DNA of 64,000 nt from Promethearchaeia archaeon (GTDB lineage Archaea; Asgardarchaeota; Lokiarchaeia; Sigyniarchaeales; SOKP01). Of this stretch, positions 2,773-15,898 are shown piece by piece. The stretch spans positions 56,409-120,408 of the forward strand of contig JAWOCD010000040.1 of assembly GCA_046483985.1 (NCBI GenBank), read 5' to 3'. The notes beneath the pieces are model-generated. The model was not told the DNA's origin and did not search any database. It saw only the letters and a list, made by a program, of their open reading frames with translations. Made by a program: the position numbers and the translations under genes. Position 1 is the first letter of the stretch. Each line of letters opens with the position of its first letter.

Positions 2773-3263
2773 TTTTATTATACCTCTTTAAGTTATTTAA
2801 TTATTTATGATAACATTTATTTTGTAGTTAGGAAAATTAATGAGAGAAATTAAGGTTAATCCTTACATATCATAAGTGAAATTATAGTAGAGCGATCTTG
2901 TCATCGTGAACATTTTCGCTTTTCAGATATACTTTCTCTTGATTATTGACGAAAATGATAGTTTGAGAGGCTTTTTTATGTCATTTTCAACAAAAGCATA
3001 AATCGAATATGAAAAGTTATAATATTTTTTGAATTGAAGAAAAATTTGGGTATTGTTCAATCAGATCAAAATAAAGACGAATAGGAATTAATGATTGATG
3101 AATAATTAATAAAAAATTCAATACTCCTAAAAAGCTAGATTGAGATTTATAGATTCAAATCGATAATTTTAAATCCTAATGTCTATTATTTCTATGTGAG
3201 TCTTAATAATAAAACGATAAAGGAATACACAAAGAATTGGTGATTTAAATAGCTGTAACTTAC

Positions 3264-4946
3264 ATGAAGAAGCTGGAAGAAGAACCAAGATCATATAAAT
3301 CCCAGTTTACGCAATTAACAAAAGGTATAAACTTAAAAGCTCAAGAATGGATTTTATCGAAGGTCGATACCAACCAATCGATTCTGGAAGCGGGTTGTGG
3401 AACGGGTTTATTAGCACATAAACTAGCCCTTAAAGGAAATACGGTGAGGGCAATAGACAAGAACCCCAAAATGATAGAATTTGCTTCGGACAAATATCAG
3501 CAAGATAAGGAGAACAATCTTACATATCAAGTTGCTTCTATTGAAGATTTACCAGTTGATCAAAGATCACAAGATATCATCATCAGTACCTTTATGCTTT
3601 CGGAATTAAGGCCATTTGAACAGCAAACTTTTCTTCGGAACGCTTGGAAGGCTCTAAAAGAGGGGGGGAAACTAATCCTTGCTTCAGAATTTATAGCCTC
3701 AGGTATATGGAAATTGGGCTTCAAGTTAAAAAGATGGAGATATAAAAAAAAATTAGAACGCCTTAAACTCCCCGCCACTCATCCCTTGGAAAATTTTTAC
3801 CAGTATTTAGAACCAATAGGGTTTAAAATTCTTAACGAAACCAAATGGAATCACGGCACTATCCATGTACTTGAATTACAGAAGACAATTAGAGGAGATC
3901 TGGATCAGAACGATGAGGAAGGATTATCTAAAAATAAACCAGGGTACTATCGTCCAGAATCCCTTAAATTTAAGGGATTAAGTTCACAGTTAAAAATCTA
4001 CCGGTGTCTTTTTACGGGACAAATAGATAATGTGCCGATAGAACCTGGAATTTATCAATCTGGCAATCCTGATAAGGAATCACCAATCATAGTTACGGCA
4101 AACTATTACTACACCTATGCAAAGGTTATGCGCAACTTAGAAGGGATTGATGCTTGGGTTTTATGTGTTGATACAAATGGAATTAATGTGTGGTGTGCCG
4201 CTCGAGGGGGAGACTTCGGTAATCAGCAATTATTAGAAGCGATAAACGCCACCAATATTCAAGACCTAACAGACTCTCGTACCCTGATACTCCCTCAATT
4301 AGCCGCGGGAGGGGTTGCGTTACCCAAACTTCCTGAAGATCCAAAAGATTTTCCATTTTCCGTAGAATATGGTCCGATATGGTCCAAATATCTAAAAGAG
4401 TATCTCAAACAAGAAGGGGGGCAGAGAAAGACTCCCGAAATGAAACGAGCAAAATTTACGCTTTCCCATAGAATCAGGGCGGGAGTGACCCATACCACCT
4501 TTCTATTCCGAAAAATCTTTGCAAAACCTCTGATAGTGATTTTTTTGGCTCTTTTCCTCCTTAACTACTTTAATTTTATAAATAGATTATGGTGGATGGG
4601 GGACCTCATTTTATGGCTTTTAATCCCCAATTTACTCATTCCAATCATATATCCCCTTTCCCAATTTACAAGAAAATTTATCTTTAAGGGAACCTTATTT
4701 GGTACTATAAATATCTTCCTCTCGGGTTTTATCTCATGGGTAATGTATGGATCCTTACTGTATTCTGCACTTAATTCCATACTTTTTTTCTGGATAACTT
4801 TCTTCAGTACAATGTCCTTTAGCGGTTATACGATGTCAACAAACCCCCGAAAAATTCAAGAGGAATACTCAACATTCCGTAAAATCAACGTTATTTTACT
4901 GTTATCAGCGATAATATTAACATTTTTAAGTTTAGTATTTATTTAA
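3264..4946 (+). CDS. hgcA: HgcA-like corrinoid protein with N-terminal class I SAM-methyltransferase domain and C-terminal transmembrane domain
   Basis: N-terminal 'ILEAGCGTG' SAM motif I; central 'EPGIYQSGNPDKESPIIVTANY...LCVDTNGINVWCAARGG...LILPQLAAGGV...YGP' (CdhD/HgcA corrinoid domain with cap-helix NVWCAA); about 5 TM helices ending 'FSGYTMSTNPRKIQEE'; followed by an hgcB-like gene. Confidence 0.82.
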   Translation: MKKLEEEPRSYKSQFTQLTKGINLKAQEWILSKVDTNQSILEAGCGTGLLAHKLALKGNTVRAIDKNPKMIEFASDKYQQDKENNLTYQVASIEDLPVDQRSQDIIISTFMLSELRPFEQQTFLRNAWKALKEGGKLILASEFIASGIWKLGFKLKRWRYKKKLERLKLPATHPLENFYQYLEPIGFKILNETKWNHGTIHVLELQKTIRGDLDQNDEEGLSKNKPGYYRPESLKFKGLSSQLKIYRCLFTGQIDNVPIEPGIYQSGNPDKESPIIVTANYYYTYAKVMRNLEGIDAWVLCVDTNGINVWCAARGGDFGNQQLLEAINATNIQDLTDSRTLILPQLAAGGVALPKLPEDPKDFPFSVEYGPIWSKYLKEYLKQEGGQRKTPEMKRAKFTLSHRIRAGVTHTTFLFRKIFAKPLIVIFLALFLLNYFNFINRLWWMGDLILWLLIPNLLIPIIYPLSQFTRKFIFKGTLFGTINIFLSGFISWVMYGSLLYSALNSILFFWITFFSTMSFSGYTMSTNPRKIQEEYSTFRKINVILLLSAIILTFLSLVFI

Positions 4947-5006: not shown

Positions 5007-5354
5007 TTGAATGATATGATTCGAAATACAATAAATGACAAAGAGAATTCTAGTTGTTGTTCGTCTCCTAATATGGGAAATATTATGGGGGCACTTGATA
5101 TTCCGGTTTTTATTGATCCGTCAAAATGTGTAGGATGCGGTTTTTGTGAAGAATTATGCCCCTTTGGGCTTCCCAAAAATGACGGAAAGGGAAAATATTA
5201 TGTGGAGGCCCCCGAAGAATGTGTTGAGTGCAGTGCATGTCAGCGAAACTGTCCTGCAGATGCAATCATCTTGGAGGAACAAAAAGGATGTGGGTGTTTA
5301 TGGGATGCAAAAAACCGAATAAAGGAAAAGAATAATACATCTAAATGCTGTTAA
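5007..5354 (+). CDS. hgcB: HgcB-like 2x[4Fe-4S] ferredoxin
   Basis: CxxCxxCxxxCP twice (CVGCGFCEELCP; CVECSACQRNCP), 'GCGC' and terminal 'CC'; immediately downstream of the hgcA-like gene. Exact start uncertain. Confidence 0.8.
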   Translation: MNDMIRNTINDKENSSCCSSPNMGNIMGALDIPVFIDPSKCVGCGFCEELCPFGLPKNDGKGKYYVEAPEECVECSACQRNCPADAIILEEQKGCGCLWDAKNRIKEKNNTSKCC

Positions 5355-5567: not shown

Positions 5568-6299
5568 TTACTCACCATATGATGATTCTGCCATTCGCTC
5601 TGCCAATTCTTCTTTCAATTCTCGAATAAATCGGTTTAGTTCTTCACTTTGAGAAAGAAATTCTTCATTATGCAGCCCATTTATTAAAGAGAGAATATGA
5701 ATTATGCCAGAAACCTCCTTATCACATGTGTGCCCGAACCGAGGTGCTCTGCATTCATGGCAGACACGGAGAGCAAAATCTTGGAGAGTTTCAACATCCA
5801 ACTTCTTATTTTGTATAAACTTAGCACCTGCCTCTGAAGAGCCACAAGGAGAAACTCGTCTAATTTTTATAAACTTTACATCTCCATTATTATCTACTTT
5901 AAGATCAAAATTAGGTTTTCCGAATTTCTCAGCAAAAGCGTCAATCTCTTGAATCCGCATATTGGGTTCTAATGAACACATTGTGCGCGGACCGATTGAT
6001 TTTGAATTTATATCTTTTACTTGCCTTAATAGACCTCTCCCAGGAGTTATCCCTAATATTAATGGTTTTTGAAGTTCTGCGATTTCTAATATGATATCTG
6101 GGTGCCTAACATACACAACATATAAGTCACATTCTGGGATTTTTAAATCTAATCCATCATCAAGCATAATATTCGGTGAAATATCGGGAACTTCAATCCA
6201 GTTAGTGGAAAAAAATCTCTTAAAGTTTTCATAAGCTCTTTCCCCATATTTTCCATCTGTAATTAACCCAATAGTTATGACTCTATCTTCTTCATTCAT
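5568..6299 (-). CDS. DUF166-family protein
   Basis: 'DGKYGERA', 'HPD', 'P..MCSL', 'FGKP', 'RVSPCGS' and a C-terminal Cys/His pattern typical of archaeal DUF166. Confidence 0.65.
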   Translation of the reverse strand: MNEEDRVITIGLITDGKYGERAYENFKRFFSTNWIEVPDISPNIMLDDGLDLKIPECDLYVVYVRHPDIILEIAELQKPLILGITPGRGLLRQVKDINSKSIGPRTMCSLEPNMRIQEIDAFAEKFGKPNFDLKVDNNGDVKFIKIRRVSPCGSSEAGAKFIQNKKLDVETLQDFALRVCHECRAPRFGHTCDKEVSGIIHILSLINGLHNEEFLSQSEELNRFIRELKEELAERMAESSYGE

Positions 6300-6342
6300 T
6301 GTTTAAGCTCTGAGAAAAGGATTTAGATCAAAAATAAATTAG

Positions 6343-6762
6343 TTATTTTGTCCCATAGAGCTCGTCAACTTTTTGAGAGATCTCTTCCGCTATAATTTTT
6401 GCTAATTTCAAACCTTTATCTCCTAAGCGTCTTGAACTATCTGGAATTAATTCTGGGTGGGCATCCATAAATTCTTTAACATTAACCATCGCCGCGGGTT
6501 TTCCACTATATTTATCTACGGCAACCCTTGCACATTCCTCTTCACAGCCTTCTACAGTAATGGTTGGATGATTCTTAGCAAAATCTCTCTCTTCTTGGCC
6601 TCCATGTCTTTCCAAACCCCCAGCCATAAAGAGTGGTTGGCATAAAATGATTGTTCGATTGGGACGTAATTCTTCAACGACCATTCTTGCAGCCGCTCTT
6701 GTTAAGGTACCCCCAACTAAATCTTCTCCACTACAAGCGATAATCCCTACTTTTTTTTTCAA
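6343..6762 (-). CDS. DGC-domain (putative Zn/metal-binding) protein
   Basis: 'IIACSG...C...TVEGCEEECA'; start placed at TTG 6762 after GGAGGAGG SD rather than 6801. Confidence 0.75.
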   Translation of the reverse strand: MKKKVGIIACSGEDLVGGTLTRAAARMVVEELRPNRTIILCQPLFMAGGLERHGGQEERDFAKNHPTITVEGCEEECARVAVDKYSGKPAAMVNVKEFMDAHPELIPDSSRRLGDKGLKLAKIIAEEISQKVDELYGTK

Positions 6763-6763
6763 C

Positions 6764-7186
6764 TTAATCCTCCTCCTTCTCATTATTATGAAGTAATTCA
6801 TCTACTTTAGTAGCTATTTTTTCGGCAAGTTTTTTTGATAATTTTTTTGTATTTTCGCCAATGGGTATAATTTTTTGTTCTGGTTTAAGATCTCGATTCT
6901 CTTTTACCACATCTGTGGTCATAAATTGAGCGTCCACCTTACCAGTAGCTTTTTTGAGGTCGTTAAATGAGCATTTTAGAGGGCATCCATCAACCGAAAT
7001 TACATAATTTTCTTTCATTTTTTTGATTGTTTCGTCTTTCCCCTTAACAATCAATGGTAAACATTCGATTTCTGCTTTTTTTTTAGCCAATTCATCCACA
7101 ACAATATAAGCCGCTTCTCTGCCAATGCTACCAAAAACTTTCCCTATTCCACTACAAGGTATAATATATACTTTTTTCTTATTCAT
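6764..7186 (-). CDS. DGC-domain protein
   Basis: 'IIPCSGIGK...CLP...SVDGCPLKCS' DGC signature. Confidence 0.82.
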   Translation of the reverse strand: MNKKKVYIIPCSGIGKVFGSIGREAAYIVVDELAKKKAEIECLPLIVKGKDETIKKMKENYVISVDGCPLKCSFNDLKKATGKVDAQFMTTDVVKENRDLKPEQKIIPIGENTKKLSKKLAEKIATKVDELLHNNEKEED

Positions 7187-7197
7187 TTCACATACAT

Positions 7198-8073
7198 CTA
7201 TTCTTTTTTATGATGATTTTTTTCCTTTTCCGCTTTATCTTTCATATATTTAAAATAATCTGGACCATCCATCAAAAATTCCTTATCTTCTTCAAAATTT
7301 TCTAATTTTATTTCGGCAAACCACCCTTTTTGATAAGCATCTTTATTCAATAATTCGGGTTGGTCATTTAAGTTGTGATTAATATTTATAATCTCTCCAG
7401 AGGCAGGAGAAATAAGCTGCAGAACCGTTTTTGTAGATTCAAAATTCCCTACGTCATCAAATTGTTCAATCTTTTTACCTTTTTCTGGAAGATCAACAAA
7501 TAAGATATCACCAGCACTATTTTGTAAATAGTCCGAAATTCCAAGAAGTGCAGTATCTCCTACTGGTTTTACCCAACAATCGTTCTCATTAAAATAGTAT
7601 CCCGATTTTGGGACTCGAAATCTGTATTTATCGATAACCGTTTCAAAATAGTTAATTTCATCAAATTCTCTTTCTTTGCCTTCAATTTTCTCCTTAGGCT
7701 CTGTTAATTCGTCCATGATATATTTAGAAATTTTTTCTACTAATTTTTCTCCTTCTTCAGTTAAAGTTAAATCCTTACCAGGTTTCATCTTAAATTTTTT
7801 CAACATCTCCGGTATTGAAACTCTTAAAACAATATTGGATTGAATATTCTTAACTAATTTGGTTGCACAACGTGTCATACATCCATCGATAATTATGACT
7901 TTATAGTTAGTTACCATTTCTTCATATTTTTCGTTTCCCGAATTCAATGATACCGGACAAATAATTTTGATATTATCTTCCATTTCATTGAGTTTTAAGG
8001 CGACTTCTCTTGCGACTACGCCAAGAATCTTATCTAATCCATTACACGGCAAAACACATAGTTTTTCTTTCAT
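7198..8073 (-). CDS. DGC domain fused to a glycine-cleavage-H-like lipoyl domain
   Basis: N-terminal 'LPCNG...ICP...IIDGCMTRCA'; C-terminal 'WVK...LGISDYLQ...GDILFVDLP...FESTKT...SPASGEI...N..L..QPELLNKDAY..GW' with the lipoyl-acceptor Lys (ESTK) retained. Confidence 0.85.
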   Translation of the reverse strand: MKEKLCVLPCNGLDKILGVVAREVALKLNEMEDNIKIICPVSLNSGNEKYEEMVTNYKVIIIDGCMTRCATKLVKNIQSNIVLRVSIPEMLKKFKMKPGKDLTLTEEGEKLVEKISKYIMDELTEPKEKIEGKEREFDEINYFETVIDKYRFRVPKSGYYFNENDCWVKPVGDTALLGISDYLQNSAGDILFVDLPEKGKKIEQFDDVGNFESTKTVLQLISPASGEIININHNLNDQPELLNKDAYQKGWFAEIKLENFEEDKEFLMDGPDYFKYMKDKAEKEKNHHKKE

Positions 8074-8092
8074 AAAGACACCCTAAAATTTT

Positions 8093-8389
8093 TTATTTCC
8101 CTCTAATCTTTTTAATCTGAGCCTTAACGTCTTTTTTATCTGGAAAAGAAAGTGCGTCCAAAGGACATGCTTTTGAACACGCTCGACAAAACACAACACA
8201 ATTATGGGGATGTTTAACAATTAATTTTTTTTCCTCGCTTTCTATTTTTTCAAAGACATCATGCGGACAAAATTCAGTACAATCCATACAAAAATCGCAC
8301 TTATCATAGTCTATTGTTGGATGCCATTCAATTTTATTTCGTGGGACTCCCATAAATGTTTCTTTATTTGAATCATATCCCTTACTCAT
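8093..8389 (-). CDS. 4Fe-4S dicluster ferredoxin
   Basis: CDFCMDCTEFCP and CVVFCRACSKACP; start probably the Met at 8389, overlapping the upstream gene's stop. Confidence 0.85.
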   Translation of the reverse strand: MSKGYDSNKETFMGVPRNKIEWHPTIDYDKCDFCMDCTEFCPHDVFEKIESEEKKLIVKHPHNCVVFCRACSKACPLDALSFPDKKDVKAQIKKIRGK

Positions 8390-8777
8390 TATTCTCATCC
8401 TCCTTGATTTCTTTTAATGTTTTTTCTACTAAATCCACGGCTTCTTGAGTTGTCATTTCTCTTATATCTAGAGGGACTAGATCTTCTTTAACATCTAATC
8501 CCGCCTTTTTAAATGCGTCCTTGAATAGTTTATATTGCATGGTTGCAGCACATCCAGCAACCATATATTTTTTTCCAGCTTTTAGAAAATCATCCCAAAA
8601 CCTATCGCCATCTTCCTCACATAATTGTGGGTGGATAAATCCGTATTCCACGGGTAATTCAATTCGAACTTGGTTAATGAAATCCCAAATATCCATCTTG
8701 GCAAAACCAGGACATTTTCCCGTGCAGACACACATTATAAATCCAATCTTTTTTTCTTCTTGTGCTTCTGAACTCAT
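8382..8777 (-). CDS. Stand-alone HdrA N-terminal-like Cys domain protein
   Basis: 'KIGFIMCVC...LC...MVAGC...LFKDAFKKAGL...DIRE' aligns by eye with 'RIGVFVCEC...YSC...VVAAC...LFQKTIREAGL...SIRE' inside HdrA (22294..25830). Confidence 0.75.
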   Translation of the reverse strand: MSSEAQEEKKIGFIMCVCTGKCPGFAKMDIWDFINQVRIELPVEYGFIHPQLCEEDGDRFWDDFLKAGKKYMVAGCAATMQYKLFKDAFKKAGLDVKEDLVPLDIREMTTQEAVDLVEKTLKEIKEDENNE

Positions 8778-8842
8778 TCAAATCATTCTTAAGTTTAATT
8801 TAGTTTTATTTAATTAAGTTAACTTTTTTATATTTATAAATG

Positions 8843-8953
8843 TATGCATTAATACGCATAGATGCATAAAGTTTCTCTCTTATATTTTAAATTCCTTAAA
8901 CTTATATTAGAATAAGAATATTTTTAATTTGAATATATGTAAAATAATACATA
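8843..8953. promoter_or_regulatory. Two candidate ArsR operator inverted repeats in the divergent promoter region
   Basis: TATGCA-N6-CGCATA (8843-8860) and TATGTA-N6-TACATA (8936-8953); same 6-6-6 geometry, one near each divergent start. Confidence 0.55.
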
Positions 8954-8964
8954 CATAAATCAAA

Positions 8965-9288
8965 ATGGATCTAAAACCACTAAAAATAAAAACATTAAAA
9001 GCATTATCGGATGAAACAAGATTAGAGATAATAAGTCTTCTACGTCATGGTGAGGAGCTTTGTGGATGTGAGCTCGAAAAGGTAATTGATAAATCCCAAT
9101 CGACAATCTCCAGACATTTAAAGAAACTTGAAGAGGCAGATTTGGTCGAAAGGCGAAGAGAAGGAGTTAAAGTACTTTATAGAATTAAAGATCCTAAGAT
9201 ATACAAATTACTAGCTGTTCTTAATAATTTAATAAAAAGGAACAATAAATTTAAAAAAATCGTAGAACTTCAAAAAGAAATAAAATAA
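8965..9288 (+). CDS. ArsR/SmtB-family metalloregulator
   Basis: 'KALSDETRLEII...ELCGCEL...SQSTISRHLKKL...G...Y'; ELCxC alpha3 metal site. Confidence 0.92.
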   Translation: MDLKPLKIKTLKALSDETRLEIISLLRHGEELCGCELEKVIDKSQSTISRHLKKLEEADLVERRREGVKVLYRIKDPKIYKLLAVLNNLIKRNNKFKKIVELQKEIK

Positions 9289-9300
9289 ACAAAAGGTGGA

Positions 9301-9582
9301 ATGATTAAATTGAAAGAAAATGAGAAATTAAAGATCGATATTTATGTGCCATTAAATGTTTGCTCGTGCCAATGGGAGGGTTTTATGAACTCTATATTTG
9401 CAGAGCTTAAAAAATACAAGGAGCATATTGATTTCCAAACAAAAAATCTTAAATCTGAAGAAGCAAGGAAATTAAATTTGCATGGAAATAGTGTAGTTAT
9501 TAATGATGAGGAAGTCGTTAAATCTTCGTTTAATCTCAAGAGAAAATTACCGAAAATCTTAGAAGAAAAGGGCTTGATTTAA
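9301..9582 (+). CDS. Small thioredoxin-fold-like protein with CxC motif
   Basis: 'KIDIYVPLNVCSCQW...SVVINDE'; in the arsR operon. Confidence 0.5.
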   Translation: MIKLKENEKLKIDIYVPLNVCSCQWEGFMNSIFAELKKYKEHIDFQTKNLKSEEARKLNLHGNSVVINDEEVVKSSFNLKRKLPKILEEKGLI

Positions 9583-9584
9583 AG

Positions 9585-10046
9585 TTGAATGAACACAAAA
9601 AAAGTCTTGATAATATAGTTTTAATTCCTTGTTCTGGGTCTGAATATAATGGGGAATTAGCCCGCCAAGTAGCTATTAGATTAAATGACGAGGGAGTTAT
9701 TTCCAAAAATAGTTCTATGTTATGTTCGACTACATTTTTAAAAAACATCTTGCTCGAAAAACAATCCTTGGTGGATATCACAAAAAATAATCTTAAATCA
9801 AGTTTTCTTATTGTAATAGAGGGATGTAAAAGTTCGTGTAAAAGTCTTATCCTTAAACAATTAGGGATAAACCCCGATATGATTTTTCACGTAGATCAAA
9901 TTGTACCCAAAGAAAGATTAAATCTGAGTGATCTTGAGGTCTTTAAAAACCGTCCTCGACTCAGTAATATTAAAAAAGACGATATCTCAAAAATGGTTGA
10001 TTATATTATAAAGAGTCTAAAAGAAAAGGGATATAATCTTAATTAA
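9585..10046 (+). CDS. DGC-domain protein
   Basis: 'LIPCSGSEYNGELARQVA...C...VIEGCKSSC'. Confidence 0.75.
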   Translation: MNEHKKSLDNIVLIPCSGSEYNGELARQVAIRLNDEGVISKNSSMLCSTTFLKNILLEKQSLVDITKNNLKSSFLIVIEGCKSSCKSLILKQLGINPDMIFHVDQIVPKERLNLSDLEVFKNRPRLSNIKKDDISKMVDYIIKSLKEKGYNLN

Positions 10047-10062
10047 ACGATTCGGAGTTTAC

Positions 10063-10100
10063 CACTAGAGTGCGAGAAAGCACCGTCCTTTGTTGTTCAA
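10063..10100 (+). mobile_element. Minimal IS200/IS605-derived element (left-end fragment joined to TTCAA right end)
   Basis: CACTAGAGTGCGAGAAAGCACCGT nearly identical to 14466-14489; ends GTTCAA like the other right ends. Confidence 0.6.
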
Positions 10101-10134
10101 TTAATATAAATGGATACATTATAGGTCGAAAAAG

Positions 10135-10785
10135 TTGGAAGTCAATTTTTTAGTAGCTTTTTTAGCAGGATTAGTAATCGGAGCAACACCTTGTATTTTG
10201 TTAATGCTTAGTGCTTTTGGATCCTCTTTAATATTAAGGGGAGAACGAAAAAATTTCATTAATATTTCCCTCGGTTTATTGTCAGGTTTTGTACTTGGAT
10301 ATATATTTATTTCCATTATCTTTTTATTTTTTGTGCCAATGTTTGAGATGCTCTATTATTTCAAATATATATTTGCGGGAATCTTGATTTTTATAGGAAT
10401 TTGGCAAATTCTTGATTATAAAAATGAGGACAGCAGAGTTTTTAGTACACCCCAAAAGGTAAAATCAGTATTGAAAAATTTTATTAAAAAAAGAACAGGG
10501 ACTTATGCGCTTTTAGTTGGAATCATATTTGTCTTTATTAAAATGCCTTGTTTTGGCGGTGTATATTTGTCCCTTCTTTATAATCTGCATAAAAACCCTC
10601 TTCTTTATGTATTTATAATGTGGTATATAATAGGTATGTTAATGCCTATCACTCTGATCTTGATTTTACTCCGATTAGGTTTAAAATATAAAAAAATTAA
10701 TAATTTCAGATTAAAATATCGGCCATATTTGAGGTTATTAAGTGGAGGAGTTTTAGTATTTCTTGCAATCTATTTACTGATATAG
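10135..10785 (+). CDS. CcdA/DsbD-family transmembrane thiol-redox protein
   Basis: About 6 TM helices with 'TPC' and 'MPC' membrane cysteines. Confidence 0.8.
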   Translation: MEVNFLVAFLAGLVIGATPCILLMLSAFGSSLILRGERKNFINISLGLLSGFVLGYIFISIIFLFFVPMFEMLYYFKYIFAGILIFIGIWQILDYKNEDSRVFSTPQKVKSVLKNFIKKRTGTYALLVGIIFVFIKMPCFGGVYLSLLYNLHKNPLLYVFIMWYIIGMLMPITLILILLRLGLKYKKINNFRLKYRPYLRLLSGGVLVFLAIYLLI

Positions 10786-10961: not shown

Positions 10962-13900
10962 ATGCTTTCCGAAGACACAATAATATTGTTCGGAATTACC
11001 CCTGGGGTTACCGAATTCCGAAAAGTTTATAATATGCTCAAGTATTTTATGAAGGAAAAGAAGGAAATCGACTATAATGACAGATTTAACATCATCTTTT
11101 TTACTGGTGAGGGGCCCAAGTATTTTGAGGATTTTACTTTAAATCCCGCTCATCTATTAGAGACCCTTAGTGACTCGAAGTCCGAGATAATAGAGGCGGA
11201 TATTGCGGGGGGTATCTTTATCTCTGCTATGTACGTTGTTGAAGTATTTCAGAAGATCTCGGGGAAGTGCTTTCGAATGATTATTCTTTCCGATTCGGGA
11301 TCAAAAAAAATTCCTGAAAAACAAATGTCCTTTCTCTCCGATTTGTTAGAAAAAATTACGGATATACCATTCATTATGGACGCCGTTCGAATAGATGGGG
11401 ATGACCCCCGAGATGATTTACGATTGATGAAATTAGCGCGACGGACTGGAGGAGATCTTTATGAGATTGACGAAATAGATCAAGAAGCTGCAGAAGCGGA
11501 AACCTCTGCTAAGGAAAAGGAGAAAACGGTAATCGAAATGCTTGGAAAGTTATCCCGAACTCCACTCAATCTTGCCAAGAAACTGAAAAAAGAAGTACAA
11601 GAAGAGGAAATGCAGGAAAAAGAACAATTCAGCGACCTCCAAGATGTCTTAAATCATCTAAAGGGCAAAAAGAAGGTGGAAGCCGAATTATTTGAGGTAA
11701 ATAATATGGAAGATATTCCTCCAAAAAAAAGGGTATTTTATGAGGGATTAGGCGAGCCCCTTCAGCCAGTAGGCGGGGAAGGAAATAAACGGTGCATGAT
11801 CTGCTTCACGTCTTTAAAAAATCAAGAGTTACTAAAGTGCCCCAATTGTAAGAATATTGCACATAAAATCTGCTTTGCCATCTGGGCAAAGAAATCAAAC
11901 ATAGGCATTCCCCACATATTTCGATGTCCTAATTGCTATAGTTTAATTAAAATGGACAGCGATTTAATTAAAAAGGTAAATAGAGTGAAAACGCCCACCA
12001 TTGAGGTGTGTAAGGATCTTGAAAACGTTTGCTTGGAAGAATACTTGGAATCCTTGGAATCTCCCGAAGGACCTAAAGTGATTACCTCAGAGGAAGGGAG
12101 TTTTAGTGAAGTGGAAGAAGAGACGGAAGAAGAATCCAAACAGAAAGTGGAAACGGAAGGAGTATCTAAAAGGGCAGAAACAGATGATAAAGAATTGAAA
12201 ATGATATGGTGTCCCAAGTGTGGAAAGATGATTACCAATGAATATAATCGCTGTCCACAGTGTGGATATAAATTAAGAAAAGTAAAACCGAGCGAAGGGA
12301 GGGAAGCAGCATCACAACGGCAAGAAGAAGCAGAGATTTTATCACAAATTAGTGAACTAAAGGTCAAGGAAAAAAGCGATCTAAAGGCCAAAAATCACAG
12401 GCAAGCAATTCAAAAAGCCCAGAAGATTAGAAAGTTGGCCAAACAGTTGGGAAAAGAAGAAATGGTACAAGAACAAGAAAACTTTATAGAGAAAGTAGAG
12501 GAAGAACGGAACCTTGGAGAGATGAGGAAAGATTACAATAGGAAATTCAGTTATTTAAAGAATAAAGTCAGCAATTTACTTAAACACAATGCCATTTCCA
12601 AAGCCTATCAAGCTGTAGAGGATTTCTCTGTACAAAATGAGGATTTAATTTCATCTCTTGCAACCCCCGAATATGAAAAATTTAAAACAAAGATTACAGA
12701 TCTGTATCAAGGAAAAGGTAAACAAGAGAAGAAAAAGACCAAAACAGGAGGGATAAAACAAGTAAGTAGTCAAGCAACTGAAGAAGATATTTGGGAAAAA
12801 TTGGATGAAAAGGAAGGCGAGATTAAATCAAAGATAGGGGAAATAACAAAATTAAACGAAGCTCGGAAACAAATCTCTCAAAAAGTTGAAAATCACGAAT
12901 ATGATGGAGCCATCAAAATTTTAAACTCCGCGATTGATGACATAAGCAGTCAAGAACTTGCAGAATATAAGAGGAGTTTGCAAGAAAAAAAAGCAAAAAT
13001 TCGGAGAAAAAAGAAAAAGCATAACAACTTGTCCAAAAAAATAACAAAGGAACAAAAGAAATATGAGAAGAATCATAAGAAAGATAATCTTTACGCTGCA
13101 TTAAATTACGCCACGAATGTGAAATTGTTGGCAGGACAATTACAAAACGCTGAACTTAAAGAAAAGTATTCCGAAATTGAGAAAGATCTCGTAGAGGAAA
13201 TAGAGGATCAAAAGGAAAAAGATGTCGTTGAAGGAGACGAATTGGAGGAGGACCTGAAATCCTTGGAAGATACCATTAAGATCGAGTATTTTGACGATGA
13301 CCTTATCCCAATTATAAAAAAATACCATTTAGACGAATTAGAACAGAAACACGCGAACTCGGAAAAGATTATTAAGGTTGCTTCCAAACGTTTAAAAGAA
13401 AATCGTAATAAGATGAAAGAAAAAATAACGCAAGAGCTTATAGTATACTCTTCGAATGGTGAAGTTTTCCAAAAGCAAGCCCAACTCGGAATTGAGAGAA
13501 TAGAAAAGAGCAAAAAAGTCAAAAAGGACGTATTCAAAAAGATCGTAGAGTATAAAATAGAGTATAAGCCCAATTTCTCTGCGAAAAGAATTGAAGATCT
13601 AACAATTCAATTGAAGGTACCCTATCACTTCAAATTAACATCGCTTTTTATTCACGAGCAAGAATTTATCAATTTAGCGATAAAACAACCAACTAAAGGT
13701 GGATTAAAATATTCTTTTATATTGGAGGATTTATCCCTTTCACGGGGATTCTCCATTCATTACCAGTTGGAGAGACATATTTCAAGGATTTTGCTCTTTA
13801 CAAAAAAGAACTATCTGTACATGATCAAGTGCTTTTATAACGTTTCAGTCCCTTCAAGTGAAGCAAGCTCGAAGATTTTATTGCCCTTCGATATTAATGA

Positions 13901-14228
13901 TGCACAGGATTTTAATTGGTTAATCATCGAAGATATATTTCCAATAAATTACAGCCCAGTTATTCTTGAACCAGAAAACTTGGAATGCGCAGAATCCTCT
14001 CTGGACGAAAAGGGAAAATTAGTCGGTTGGATTTTGGAAAATTTATCCGCGGGCACTCACTTATTTCAATATTTATTAGTTTCACCAGAGAAACTCGCAT
14101 TACTAACCAATTATCTTCAGAAAAAGCTTCAAAATGCAGATGCATTTTTACAACACGGGAATCTCATAGGTTTCAAAAAAAATGTGGAGGAGCTCAGTTC
14201 GATCATCCGTAAAGAGCTAAAATCATAA
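10962..14228 (+). CDS. Large vWA-like + C4HC3 (PHD/RING-variant) finger + C4 Zn-ribbon + coiled-coil + beta-rich C-terminal protein
   Basis: vWA-like N-terminus ('DRFNIIFF','FRMIILSD','LMKLARRTGG'); CMIC...CPNCKNIAHKIC..W...CPNC; WCPKC...CPQC; long K/E-rich helical region. Confidence 0.65.
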   Translation: MLSEDTIILFGITPGVTEFRKVYNMLKYFMKEKKEIDYNDRFNIIFFTGEGPKYFEDFTLNPAHLLETLSDSKSEIIEADIAGGIFISAMYVVEVFQKISGKCFRMIILSDSGSKKIPEKQMSFLSDLLEKITDIPFIMDAVRIDGDDPRDDLRLMKLARRTGGDLYEIDEIDQEAAEAETSAKEKEKTVIEMLGKLSRTPLNLAKKLKKEVQEEEMQEKEQFSDLQDVLNHLKGKKKVEAELFEVNNMEDIPPKKRVFYEGLGEPLQPVGGEGNKRCMICFTSLKNQELLKCPNCKNIAHKICFAIWAKKSNIGIPHIFRCPNCYSLIKMDSDLIKKVNRVKTPTIEVCKDLENVCLEEYLESLESPEGPKVITSEEGSFSEVEEETEEESKQKVETEGVSKRAETDDKELKMIWCPKCGKMITNEYNRCPQCGYKLRKVKPSEGREAASQRQEEAEILSQISELKVKEKSDLKAKNHRQAIQKAQKIRKLAKQLGKEEMVQEQENFIEKVEEERNLGEMRKDYNRKFSYLKNKVSNLLKHNAISKAYQAVEDFSVQNEDLISSLATPEYEKFKTKITDLYQGKGKQEKKKTKTGGIKQVSSQATEEDIWEKLDEKEGEIKSKIGEITKLNEARKQISQKVENHEYDGAIKILNSAIDDISSQELAEYKRSLQEKKAKIRRKKKKHNNLSKKITKEQKKYEKNHKKDNLYAALNYATNVKLLAGQLQNAELKEKYSEIEKDLVEEIEDQKEKDVVEGDELEEDLKSLEDTIKIEYFDDDLIPIIKKYHLDELEQKHANSEKIIKVASKRLKENRNKMKEKITQELIVYSSNGEVFQKQAQLGIERIEKSKKVKKDVFKKIVEYKIEYKPNFSAKRIEDLTIQLKVPYHFKLTSLFIHEQEFINLAIKQPTKGGLKYSFILEDLSLSRGFSIHYQLERHISRILLFTKKNYLYMIKCFYNVSVPSSEASSKILLPFDINDAQDFNWLIIEDIFPINYSPVILEPENLECAESSLDEKGKLVGWILENLSAGTHLFQYLLVSPEKLALLTNYLQKKLQNADAFLQHGNLIGFKKNVEELSSIIRKELKS

Positions 14229-14387
14229 AGTTCGCACCAAATAAGGAAGAGCAGATACCCAAAAGTACCATTCACGGTATCTATGAAGGTATAGCAAGAG
14301 AGGAGGAGTCTTTTCTCACAGAGAGTGTGTATTTATCTACATCCTCAGCTAATCTAACTTCAAGAGATTCCCTGAAATATTGTTGTC

Positions 14388-14444
14388 GATGCATTTTTGA
14401 AAAGAGAGGAATTTATAGATTTCAAAAAAAACATAAAAGGTTAA
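14388..14444 (+). repeat. Degenerate duplicate of the 3' end of the 10962..14228 gene
   Basis: Encodes DAFLKREEFIDFKKNIKG*, versus DAFLQHGNLIGFKKNVEE starting at 14139; same spacing. Confidence 0.5.
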
Positions 14445-14465
14445 AATAATAAACTCCCATTTAAC

Positions 14466-14684
14466 CGTTAGAGTGCGAGAAAACACCGTTTTTCAAGGCG
14501 TTGATGAATCGCACATATATTTATAAAAGAGCGCTACTATAATGTAATTGATGGACGATAACCAAGTTCATCTCCAACCGTAGGGACTACGGGGCTGGCG
14601 TTTGGAGAAGATGTCAGACTGATGGTATGTCAGCAATCTTTGATGAATTACGAATCCATCGCCCTTTAGGGTGTGGTGGTTCAA
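14466..14684 (+). mobile_element. Non-autonomous IS200/IS605 derivative retaining left end and a TnpB omegaRNA-like right end
   Basis: Left hairpin 'GTGCGAGAAAACACCGTTTTTCAAGGCGTTGATGAATCGCAC'; 'ACCGTAGGGACTACGGGG...GGAGA...GAATCCATCGCCCTTTAGGGTGTGGTGGTTCAA' resembles the sequence usually found 3' of tnpB; no ORF. Confidence 0.75.
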
Positions 14685-14731
14685 ATGTTAAACACAAATT
14701 TTAAAGCAAATTTTTTTCTGAATTGTGATTT

Positions 14732-15898
14732 ATGATGGAAAATACCCGCAGTGAAGATACCCTTATATTCAGTGGTTTAACCCCTGGGATTACAAAGATG
14801 AATGAGATTTATGAGTCCCTAGAGCATTTTTGTAAAATTAAAAAGCAAAATGACCCAAGTGAGCGATTTAATCTCATTATCTTTCAAAAAGATGGACCCA
14901 ATTATTTAGAGAAATTCACTCTTAAACCAGAGAATATAGTAGTCGCTCTAAAATCCCTAGAGCCGATGATTGTTCGGGCAAACATCGCAGGCGGAATTAT
15001 GGTGGCAATTACCTTTATTATTGATGTATTTAAACGAATCCCAGAAAAAACTTTCCGGCTTATTATCCTCACGGATAAAGGTTCACTTAAAATTCCGGAG
15101 AATTATATCCCTGTTTTAAATAATCTAATTGATAAGGTAAAGGATATGCCTTTTTTTATCGATATTGTGCGGCTCGATATCGATGACCCTCGAGAGGATC
15201 TCAAGTTAATGAAACTTGCACGTAGAGCAAATGGAGATATTCATGAAATCAATGATCCAGAATCCTTATCAGCAATTTTGGAAGTGCTTGCTCTGAAGCG
15301 GGAATTAACCTACGAAATCGGAGCAAGAGATCAAGACCTTGAAATCCCAAAGGAAAATCGACCCTTTTATGAAAATCTTGCCGATGAGCCGGTGCCTGTT
15401 TCTAAGGAAGATAATCTCACTTGTTCAATTTGCTTTCAGCAAGAAAAAGCGGAACTGGTCAAATGTCCGAGTTGTAATACCGTTGCCCATAAAAGTTGCT
15501 GGGCAAAATGGGCAAAAAACTCACAAATAGGAATATTTAACGTGTTTCGTTGTCATAATTGCTTTAATCTATTAAAGTTCGATGAAGAATATGTTTTTGC
15601 GATTCAATCGGGAAAGGAGCCAGCTTTAGAAGAGGAAAAAGTGAAGGTCATTGAGGTGCAAAAATACTTAGAAGATTTAGAAACTGATGAGGGGCCAGAG
15701 ATAGTGCAAGTAGAGGATCCAATACCGGTTCCCGGGGAAGATACTGGTTTCCAATTTGAAGAGGAAGAAGAGGACGATTATATTCCTTTGAATGATGAGG
15801 AGGTTAGAATAATCTGGTGTCCTCACTGTAATACCATAACTTCGAACGAATATCGGAAGTGTCCTAACTGCGGATGGTCTTTAAAAGATGTAGATTAA
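14732..15898 (+). CDS. vWA-like + C4HC3 finger + C4 Zn-ribbon protein (short paralog of 10962..14228)
   Basis: Colinear similarity with the first ~440 aa of the upstream gene ('EDT..F.G.TPG','DDPRxDLxLMKLARR','WAK.S.IGI..xFRCxNC','IWCPxC...NEY..CPxCG'). Confidence 0.7.
   Translation: MMENTRSEDTLIFSGLTPGITKMNEIYESLEHFCKIKKQNDPSERFNLIIFQKDGPNYLEKFTLKPENIVVALKSLEPMIVRANIAGGIMVAITFIIDVFKRIPEKTFRLIILTDKGSLKIPENYIPVLNNLIDKVKDMPFFIDIVRLDIDDPREDLKLMKLARRANGDIHEINDPESLSAILEVLALKRELTYEIGARDQDLEIPKENRPFYENLADEPVPVSKEDNLTCSICFQQEKAELVKCPSCNTVAHKSCWAKWAKNSQIGIFNVFRCHNCFNLLKFDEEYVFAIQSGKEPALEEEKVKVIEVQKYLEDLETDEGPEIVQVEDPIPVPGEDTGFQFEEEEEDDYIPLNDEEVRIIWCPHCNTITSNEYRKCPNCGWSLKDVD

Follow-up and report, generated by a model that had tools for sequence, protein, structure and literature searches.

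A window of 64,000 nt from the genome of a Promethearchaeia archaeon raises the question of what an ArsR-type repressor controls when it stands between two divergent operons encoding DGC-domain proteins, a lipoyl carrier and Fe-S proteins, and whether these genes serve the HgcA-like and HgcB-like pair beside them. A first-pass annotation had treated ten of the genes as one system, a thiol and Fe-S relay for soft metals and metalloids that plausibly feeds the neighboring methylase. Here, we find that the conserved unit is smaller, comprising a core cassette of five genes that encode an HdrA N-terminal-domain-like (HdrA-N-like) protein, a ferredoxin, a DGC-GcvH fusion and two further DGC proteins (DGC-A and DGC-B). 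With slightly better than even confidence, we read this cassette as a redox relay of thiols, lipoyl groups and Fe-S clusters that belongs to the arsenic regulon and probably handles arsenic via protein thiols and lipoic acid rather than feeding the HgcA-like genes.

The open reading frames (ORFs) of the window were listed and scanned against Pfam and NCBIfam, and all ten genes named earlier were present at their places, in leftward and rightward operons separated by a 187-nt spacer. Within the leftward operon, the start of the ferredoxin gene overlaps the HdrA-N-like gene by 17 nt, and DGC-B overlaps DGC-A by 38 nt. To follow the cassette through other genomes, we scanned for a pattern of its 131-amino-acid HdrA-N-like protein, which placed the cassette in 343 species genomes, and 80 related loci were fetched. 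Neighbors were counted within 10 kb, after neighboring ORFs had been clustered without bias and the recurrent families annotated by Pfam and NCBIfam; where a range is given below, it reflects two counting methods. The order HdrA-N-like, ferredoxin, DGC-GcvH, DGC, DGC was kept in essentially all 80 loci, which answers the call of the first-pass annotation for a check of neighborhood conservation. The ferredoxin was the second gene in 80/80 loci, an orthologue of DGC-A the fourth gene in 74/80, and an orthologue of DGC-B the fifth in 73-74/80. The carriers span at least eight phyla, among them Promethearchaeota, Heimdall-, Frey- and Jord-archaea, Bathyarchaeia (where a DGC and a separate GcvH replace the fusion), Bacillota, Negativicutes, Actinomycetota, Bacteroidales, Armatimonadota, Acidobacteriota and Synergistia. 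Some carriers can be grown in culture, for instance Lucifera butyrica, 'Ca. Formimonas warabiya' DCMF, and Desulfofundulus or Dehalobacterium strains. Each DGC gene, without exception, matched its positional counterpart in the window best. The three DGCs, each orthologous by position, are therefore old, non-interchangeable paralogs, which suggests that their products may form a hetero-oligomer. The remaining genes did not share this conservation. An arm of ArsR, a CxC protein and a fourth DGC was found in about 18-24 loci, almost all of them Asgard, and DUF166 followed the cassette in 11/80, mainly in Lokiarchaeial versions; both are add-ons to the five-gene core, mostly in Asgard genomes. The idea of ten genes acting as one system thus has to be given up.

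The genes around the core are those of arsenic islands. ArsR was a neighbor at 62-70 of the 80 loci, Acr3, the commonest pump, at 36-37, an ArsC of the low-molecular-weight (LMW) phosphatase type at 15-20, and a DsbD_2-fold permease at 22-34; the last belongs to the ArsG family by NCBIfam score (316 bits, cut-off 200) and often occurs as 2-5 genes in tandem. An LplA-type lipoate ligase (16/80) mostly lies directly downstream, and a dihydrolipoyl dehydrogenase (7/80; TIGR01350, 522 bits) directly upstream in Firmicutes. Rhodanese was a neighbor in 12 loci, and TlpA-like redoxins and DUF169 proteins were also present, with counts (5-18) that vary widely with the method. Among the ArsR proteins nearest to the cassette, 48/64 have a CxC site by the loose pattern [E/L]xCxC[D/E/Q], and most of these sites read ExCxC[D/E], the R773-type As(III) site. 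Because the neighbors are ArsR, Acr3, ArsC and ArsG, and the ArsRs mostly carry the As(III)-type site, we regard the cassette as a resident of arsenic islands. These arsenic-gene neighbors elsewhere make a soft-metalloid role the best reading of what the first-pass annotation had proposed, an uncharacterised set of Cys, lipoyl and Fe-S proteins under an As(III)-type ArsR.

The ArsR of the window has a winged-helix HTH_5 domain and the ELCxC cysteine pair (R773 Cys32/Cys34 type). The third cysteine, Cys37, is absent, and it is known to be dispensable. Judged by these residues, the protein is of the As(III)-binding type. A candidate operator, an 18-bp inverted repeat, lies 2 bp from a TATA-like box (8833-8840) and ~56 nt before the first start codon of the cassette, and the same repeat stands at the same 20-nt offset from a TATA-like box in the window and in seven related Asgard loci. 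In archaea, initiation is blocked, where repressors act, usually from a site over the B recognition element/TATA region. Only two operator-like sites, both loose chance matches, were seen elsewhere in the window. A second, looser copy of the repeat adjoins arsR, and this two-site arrangement is also found in loci L010, L012, L025 and L034. Parts of 5590-9285 (the cassette and arsR) are matched by contigs from two metatranscriptome studies of salt lakes, three contigs being free of mismatches; the HgcA-like gene is among the uncovered parts, from which nothing follows. The contigs place the organism, or a near-identical strain, in salt-lake RNA libraries, which is weak evidence, of presence only, and no proof of transcription.

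Table 1. Features of the window around the cassette, with positions counted from the first nucleotide of the window.
Feature	Position	Strand	Evidence or remark
AAATCGATAATTTTAAAT	3157-3174		~90 nt upstream of the HgcA-like fusion; matches the ATCGAT-plus-TATA motif of relatives
S-adenosylmethionine (SAM)-methyltransferase-HgcA-like fusion, cap helix NVWCAARGGDF	3264-4946	+	weak CpaM match plus corrinoid and membrane domain
HgcB-like ferredoxin	5007-5354	+	2x[4Fe-4S]
DUF166 protein, motifs CGSS and CHECRAPRFGHTCDKE	5568-6299	-	PF02593, E 2.9e-29
DGC-B, 152 amino acids, fifth core gene	6343-6801	-	PF08859, 42 bits
DGC-A, 140 amino acids	6764-7186	-	PF08859, 59 bits
DGC-GcvH fusion	7198-8073	-	PF08859, 58.5 bits; PF01597, 120.6 bits
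2x[4Fe-4S] ferredoxin, 101 amino acids	8093-8398	-	Pfam Fer4 families
HdrA N-terminal-domain-like protein, 131 amino acids, first core gene	8382-8777	-	profile match to HdrA; presumed [4Fe-4S] electron-transfer module
Candidate ArsR operator, 18-bp inverted repeat, minus strand TATGCGTATTAATGCATA	8843-8860	.	conserved repeat
Second, looser repeat copy, minus strand TATGTATGTATTATTTTACATATA	8934-8957	.	directly upstream of arsR
ArsR/SmtB repressor, EELCGCE alpha-3 site	8965-9288	+	PF01022, E 1.7e-16; NCBIfam HTH_metalloreg NF033788, 93.6 bits (cut-off 55)
CxC protein, 93 amino acids, thioredoxin fold	9301-9582	+	AlphaFold model, predicted local distance difference test (pLDDT) 90
Fourth DGC, 153 amino acids	9585-10046	+	PF08859, 50 bits; same family as DGC-A (hhalign 97%)
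CcdA-family membrane protein, 216 amino acids	10135-10785	+	Asgard family named CcdA by NCBI

The five proteins of the core show which cofactors they are likely to hold. The first of them had been labeled a mini-HdrA, and the label is right, since its profile aligns to HdrA residues 4-93 (7bkb_A, E 0.003; also 9sfi and 5odc) with the cluster cysteines in register, and thus to the N-terminal [4Fe-4S] domain alone. It shares this domain and its four cysteines with the HdrA/MvhD modules (PDB 5odc, 7bkb), but it is a stand-alone protein, without the thioredoxin-reductase-like body that binds flavin adenine dinucleotide (FAD) and the ferredoxin domains of the ~650-amino-acid HdrA, and C22 is extra among its five invariant cysteines (C16, C18, C22, C53 and C76). 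No Pfam family matched it, and a search for fused or longer homologues found none. Its relatives, 1365 proteins at 65-91% identity, are spread across phyla and domains of life.

The GcvH part of the DGC-GcvH fusion is a complete GcvH-type lipoyl carrier (118 bits, barely over the NCBIfam GcvH cut-off of 117), matched over its full length. Its predicted lipoyl lysine, K215 in the motif ESTK, and the ES-K context are invariant in 60/60 orthologues, as are E212 and the DGC cysteines C65 and C69, while C10 (57/60) and C39 (54/60) are nearly so. With an invariant lysine of this kind, the lipoyl arm is clearly predicted to be functional. The carrier differs from GcvH in its fusion to DGC, in an extra cysteine of the H-domain (C166, kept in 55/60), and in having no glycine-cleavage partners: neither GcvP nor GcvT was among the conserved neighbors in the 80 loci, and no gcvP, gcvT or gcvL adjoins it in the window. 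A second, stand-alone GcvH of housekeeping type is encoded on another contig of the genome (C17), and the single lipoate ligase gene of the genome lies outside the window, on contig C29.

A model of DGC-A (pLDDT 93) has a flavodoxin-like three-layer fold, in which the conserved C11, C42, C68 and C72 directly follow the first three strands or open the helix that comes next. These are the places where flavodoxin-like folds bind cofactors. A PDB sequence search gave no match for DGC, DUF166 or the CxC protein, a Foldseek search with the DGC model no match at E <= 0.001, and a wide VIA search generic flavodoxin-like matches only (best 3pu6_A, Z 8.5), with MvhD (5odc_D) at rank 33 among the weak ones. 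A common origin of the four small Cys proteins as paralogs of the MvhD type was considered and dropped, as hhalign gave DGC against the HdrA-N-like protein a probability of 0.5%.

In the rightward arm, the CxC protein was found in 24/80 cassette loci. The first-pass annotation had assigned it a thioredoxin fold, and its model agrees, since among the matches listed almost all are thioredoxins, glutaredoxins or other thioredoxin-fold proteins (prob 0.8-1.0, TM-score 0.45-0.64). P17, C21 and C23 are invariant, and the two cysteines precede the helix 26-37, with CxC in place of the CxxC motif, which is not present. No Pfam family matched at E 0.01, so that the protein is not a member of PF13192. 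In Asgard loci the fourth DGC is always paired with the CxC protein, a pairing seen in 18 loci, and a predicted complex of the two scored 0.56 compared with 0.49 for the control, which speaks neither for nor against their association.

Computation gave us the order of the genes, their co-occurrence, the residues that bind cofactors, the folds and the operator, and from them we infer the direction of electron flow, the substrate and the hand-over in the following proposal. ArsR would sit on the inverted repeat abutting the TATA box and depart when As(III) occupies its CxC site. The two Fe-S proteins may then accept low-potential electrons, or, in some Firmicutes, the upstream dihydrolipoyl dehydrogenase could deliver them from NAD(P)H instead, and the four-Cys DGC domains would relay these electrons so that the lipoyl arm and the CxC protein are held in the dithiol state. 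The dithiols could bind trivalent arsenicals or reduce pentavalent ones, which would be handed to an exporter: at other loci an Acr3 or ArsG-family permease, here the Acr3 encoded on another contig. The cassette might thus serve as a supply of reductant, as a dithiol trap or chaperone, or as a reductase of pentavalent organoarsenicals; we know of no reductase of such a kind that has been identified for these compounds. In textbook accounts arsenite poisons by acting on lipoic acid, and a conserved operon centered on a lipoyl carrier, under ArsR control and present in hundreds of anaerobes, archaeal as well as bacterial, would open a new branch of arsenic biology. For the DGC domain (PF08859) and the stand-alone HdrA-N module, and perhaps for DUF166 as well, this would be the first functional context.

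Several observations weigh against an arsenic relay. For the DGC fold, the Foldseek and VIA searches gave no structural relative that is informative. No ars gene was found in the fetched DNA of 13/80 loci, most of them short contigs. The earlier statement that Acr3, ArsC and MerA are missing here is true, for this window only, and ArsG is absent from it as well; the only Acr3 of the genome is on another contig, with neither ArsR nor the operator nearby. ArsR-family CxC sensors can take other ligands, and S-adenosylhomocysteine, too, elicits a response from the hgcAB regulator of P. mercurii ND132. Finally, the rhodanese, the TlpA-like redoxins and the resemblance to the sHdr-LbpA system, considered below, fit sulfur chemistry equally well.

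No description of the five-gene cassette was found in the searchable full-text literature, which did not include a few possibly relevant papers, and the earlier remark that no described system has this composition holds within that scope. The nearest arsenic-linked relatives are ars operons under ArsR that contain thiol accessory genes, above all 'operon C' of Pseudodesulfovibrio mercurii ND132, an arsenic-induced operon of arsR, arsP, arsE (thioredoxin-like, PF13192) and a DGC gene (PF08859; bioRxiv 10.1101/2022.10.17.512643). Like the rightward arm, operon C is controlled by ArsR and has a small thioredoxin-fold protein followed by DGC, and arsenic pumps, found in operon C, are also neighbors in most cassette loci. 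However, there is no pump in the divergon examined here, the five-gene core is absent from the ND132 operon as described, and the thioredoxin-fold protein of the window has CxC and no PF13192 match. Operon C, in which DGC accompanies ArsP and an ArsE-like protein, bears on a narrower version of the relay that we favor, which we judge unlikely, namely that the cassette converts methyl or aromatic arsenicals by reduction from the pentavalent to the trivalent state, for export by pumps of the ArsG or ArsP type. The frequent ArsG-family permeases noted above and the ArsC-ArsM-like fusions of Bacteroidales islands also speak for this proposal. In an alternative form, trivalent organoarsenicals would be trapped on the dihydrolipoyl arm, and dihydrolipoate binds monosubstituted As(III) especially tightly. 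On the other hand, the commonest neighbor is Acr3, a pump for inorganic As(III), and the window contains neither ArsG nor ArsP.

The first-pass annotation had described the neighboring genes as hgcAB. The SAM-methyltransferase-HgcA-like fusion and the HgcB-like ferredoxin are indeed present, but both score below the family cut-offs: the fusion with 182.9 bits against an HgcA cut-off of 275, and also under the NCBIfam HgcAB-like and CpaM cut-offs, and the ferredoxin with 52 bits against an HgcB cut-off of 99. Like HgcAB, the pair has a corrinoid domain with the cap-helix cysteine and a transmembrane domain, and its 2x[4Fe-4S] member bears C-terminal cysteines. It differs from HgcAB in the N-terminal SAM-methyltransferase fusion and in the cap helix, which keeps the cysteine but reads NVWCAARGGDF instead of NVWCAAGKG, so that the GK of the HgcA motif N(V/I)WCA(A/G)GK is replaced. 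Eight other Lokiarchaeial cassette genomes carry the same fusion on other contigs without the core cassette (loci L084-L091), with the cap helix NVWCAARG[G/N/D][D/N]F and an HgcB-like partner that has a conserved GCGCLW and a Cys-rich tail, and this pair is widespread in Lokiarchaeial genomes. At four of the eight places, the pair is part of an ArsR operon together with Acr3 or ArsC and a CxC thioredoxin-fold paralog; DUF166 is present in two of the four. Beside ArsR, the order is DUF166-Acr3-fusion-HgcB-like-CxC protein at two loci, Acr3-fusion-HgcB-like-CxC protein at one, and fusion-HgcB-like-CxC protein-ArsC at one; a fifth place has DUF166 only, as DUF166-fusion-HgcB-like. This ArsR/ars linkage parallels published hgcAB neighborhoods (PMC7438021, PMC11984097), and the Lokiarchaeial pair is a candidate for an arsenic enzyme that depends on a corrinoid. 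In the relatives, the promoters of the HgcA-like operons next to ArsR share an ATCGAT-plus-TATA motif, distinct from the cassette operator, and the window has a match to it upstream of its own fusion. No ArsR adjoins the window fusion; contigs C101 and C82 hold the nearest homologues of the kind of ArsR seen in the relatives. The MetV-MetF genes (1144-2772), which diverge from the fusion, were considered as a conserved HgcA-like partner and rejected; they are absent from the eight relatives' loci and from the 80 cassette loci, and their position looks like a local juxtaposition, not a conserved methyl-supply unit.

A supply line, in which the relay captures or reduces a metal(loid) substrate for the HgcA-like/HgcB-like pair or re-reduces its corrinoid, was the role first suggested for this neighborhood, and we consider it rather improbable. 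Its evidence begins with the adjacency in the window and extends to Bacteroidales, where, in seven loci, a true hgcAB (NVWCAAGKG) shares an arsenic island with the cassette at a distance of up to 10 kb; ArsR and an ArsC-ArsM-like fusion stand ahead of it. This fusion (L061:11489-12724; L075, ~12838) joins an LMW-phosphatase-type ArsC to an ArsM-like SAM methyltransferase in a chain of 410 amino acids. True HgcA occurs elsewhere in the genome in a further 11/50 cassette genomes, and paralogs of DUF166 and the CxC protein stand in the Lokiarchaeial HgcA-like operons. The window DUF166 groups with the cassette-linked copies (70% identity to that of L025), and the sole experimental lead to its function is that DUF166 is required for the corrinoid-dependent CODH/ACS of Methanococcus maripaludis (bioRxiv 10.1101/2024.03.05.583561). 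Against a supply line, 73/80 cassette loci have no HgcA within 10 kb, 39/50 cassette genomes tested lack true HgcA, and the eight Lokiarchaeial relatives hold the fusion apart from the core cassette. No other Lokiarchaeial cassette locus has an HgcA-like gene within 10 kb, so that, of the Asgard loci examined, those of this genome alone show the adjacency, and even here the two gene sets are convergent and have different promoter motifs. The published accounts of hgcAB-ars linkage (PMC7438021, PMC10349881, PMC11984097) make no mention of the cassette. The cassette and the HgcA-type genes are both part of the arsenic gene pool and, in Lokiarchaeia, have two accessory families in common, DUF166 and the CxC protein. 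It is because of this common pool, and the accessories drawn from it, that the cassette lies beside an ars-type HgcA-like operon here, and no dedicated supply line can be deduced from their lying side by side.

The occurrence of Lokiarchaeial HgcA-like genes in ArsR-Acr3 operons that share accessories with the cassette nevertheless bears on what HgcAB evolved to do. It is quite improbable, but conceivable, that in Lokiarchaeia the cassette, DUF166, the CxC protein and the methyltransferase-HgcA-like/HgcB-like pair form one anaerobic, corrinoid-dependent pathway of arsenic methylation or demethylation, with As(III) or methyl-As carried on the dihydrolipoyl arm. If so, the HgcAB family would have worked originally on arsenic, and mercury methylation would be a side activity.

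The sHdr-LbpA system of sulfur oxidation combines an Hdr-like complex with GcvH-like lipoate-binding proteins and dedicated lipoate ligases. The cassette resembles it in having a GcvH-type carrier outside glycine cleavage, an HdrA-derived Fe-S module with ferredoxin-type clusters and, although not in the window, a neighboring LplA-type ligase. A sulfur or persulfide relay of this type, in which the lipoyl arm carries sulfane sulfur or reduces polysulfide or thioarsenate and ArsR is a persulfide-type sensor, could also account for the rhodanese beside the cassette in 12 loci and for weak matches of the window ArsR to the BigR and TsoR models. Four window proteins match, weakly, NCBIfam selenoprotein families of the Tso ('three selenoprotein operon') and DfsP (DUF166) groups, and Tso includes a rhodanese/DsbD-like protein, as rhodanese and DsbD_2-type permeases flank the cassette in Bacteroidales. 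However, the scores for TsoR, TsoX (small, thioredoxin-like), the GcvH-related protein and DfsP (43 vs 115, 19 vs 52, 47 vs 150 and 47 vs 200 bits) are far under the cut-offs, and there are no selenocysteine codons here. In contrast to sHdr-LbpA, the cassette has only the ~130-residue N-terminal domain of HdrA, with DGC domains instead of the rest; the FAD-binding HdrA body, the CCG domains of HdrB/HdrC, DsrE and TusA were all absent from the recurrent neighbor families. The context is arsenic and not sulfur oxidation, with Acr3, ArsC and ArsG as the dominant neighbors and an As(III)-type ExCxC[D/E] site in the ArsRs, and we give a sulfur relay a small chance. Least probable of all is that a general low-potential redox or lipoyl-protein maintenance module, without direct metalloid chemistry, merely hitch-hikes in mobile metal-resistance islands, for although its components are generic electron carriers, and the high identity of the HdrA-N-like protein across domains together with a patchy phylogeny suggests mobile DNA, this would leave the dedicated ligase and dehydrogenase unexplained, and the association with ArsR is near universal and includes a conserved candidate operator over the cassette's own promoter.

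Elsewhere in the genome, the operator was not found upstream of the unlinked acr3, of a second DGC pair or of a second DUF166 gene, and the neighbors of these are unrelated genes. The Acr3 (C101:104945-105922; L081:4841-5989) has a short N-terminal, rubredoxin-like Cys motif with a weak match to PF21349. The second, tandem DGC pair (C11:6046-6694; L082:6028-6820) lies between GH63-like and GH38 genes, with neither ArsR nor Fe-S partners. At other loci, a protein of ~95 amino acids without a Pfam or NCBIfam match follows Acr3 in 14 cases (cluster c11, L001-L030; e.g., L004:8177-8461), nearly all in Asgard arsenic islands beside the cassette.

At the right-hand end of the divergon, the CcdA assignment of the first-pass annotation is plausible as to family but does not extend to membership in the system. 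The gene belongs to an Asgard family of ~90 proteins that NCBI names CcdA, a few of them with PF02683, and its product has the invariant Pro-Cys motifs TPC and MPC in transmembrane helices 1 and 4, although the window member itself matches no Pfam or NCBIfam model. As an operon member it was rejected: it adjoins the cassette in 0/80 cassette loci, and among 26 metagenome loci of its relatives the cassette was near in one, ~5 kb upstream. The 88-nt gap before the gene holds a TATA-like box, and the gene probably has its own promoter. Beyond it, at 10962-15898, two tandem paralogs unrelated to the cassette encode proteins in which a vWA-like region at the N-terminus is combined with a RING/PHD-like finger and a zinc ribbon; one of the proteins has 1088 amino acids and a long coiled-coil region.

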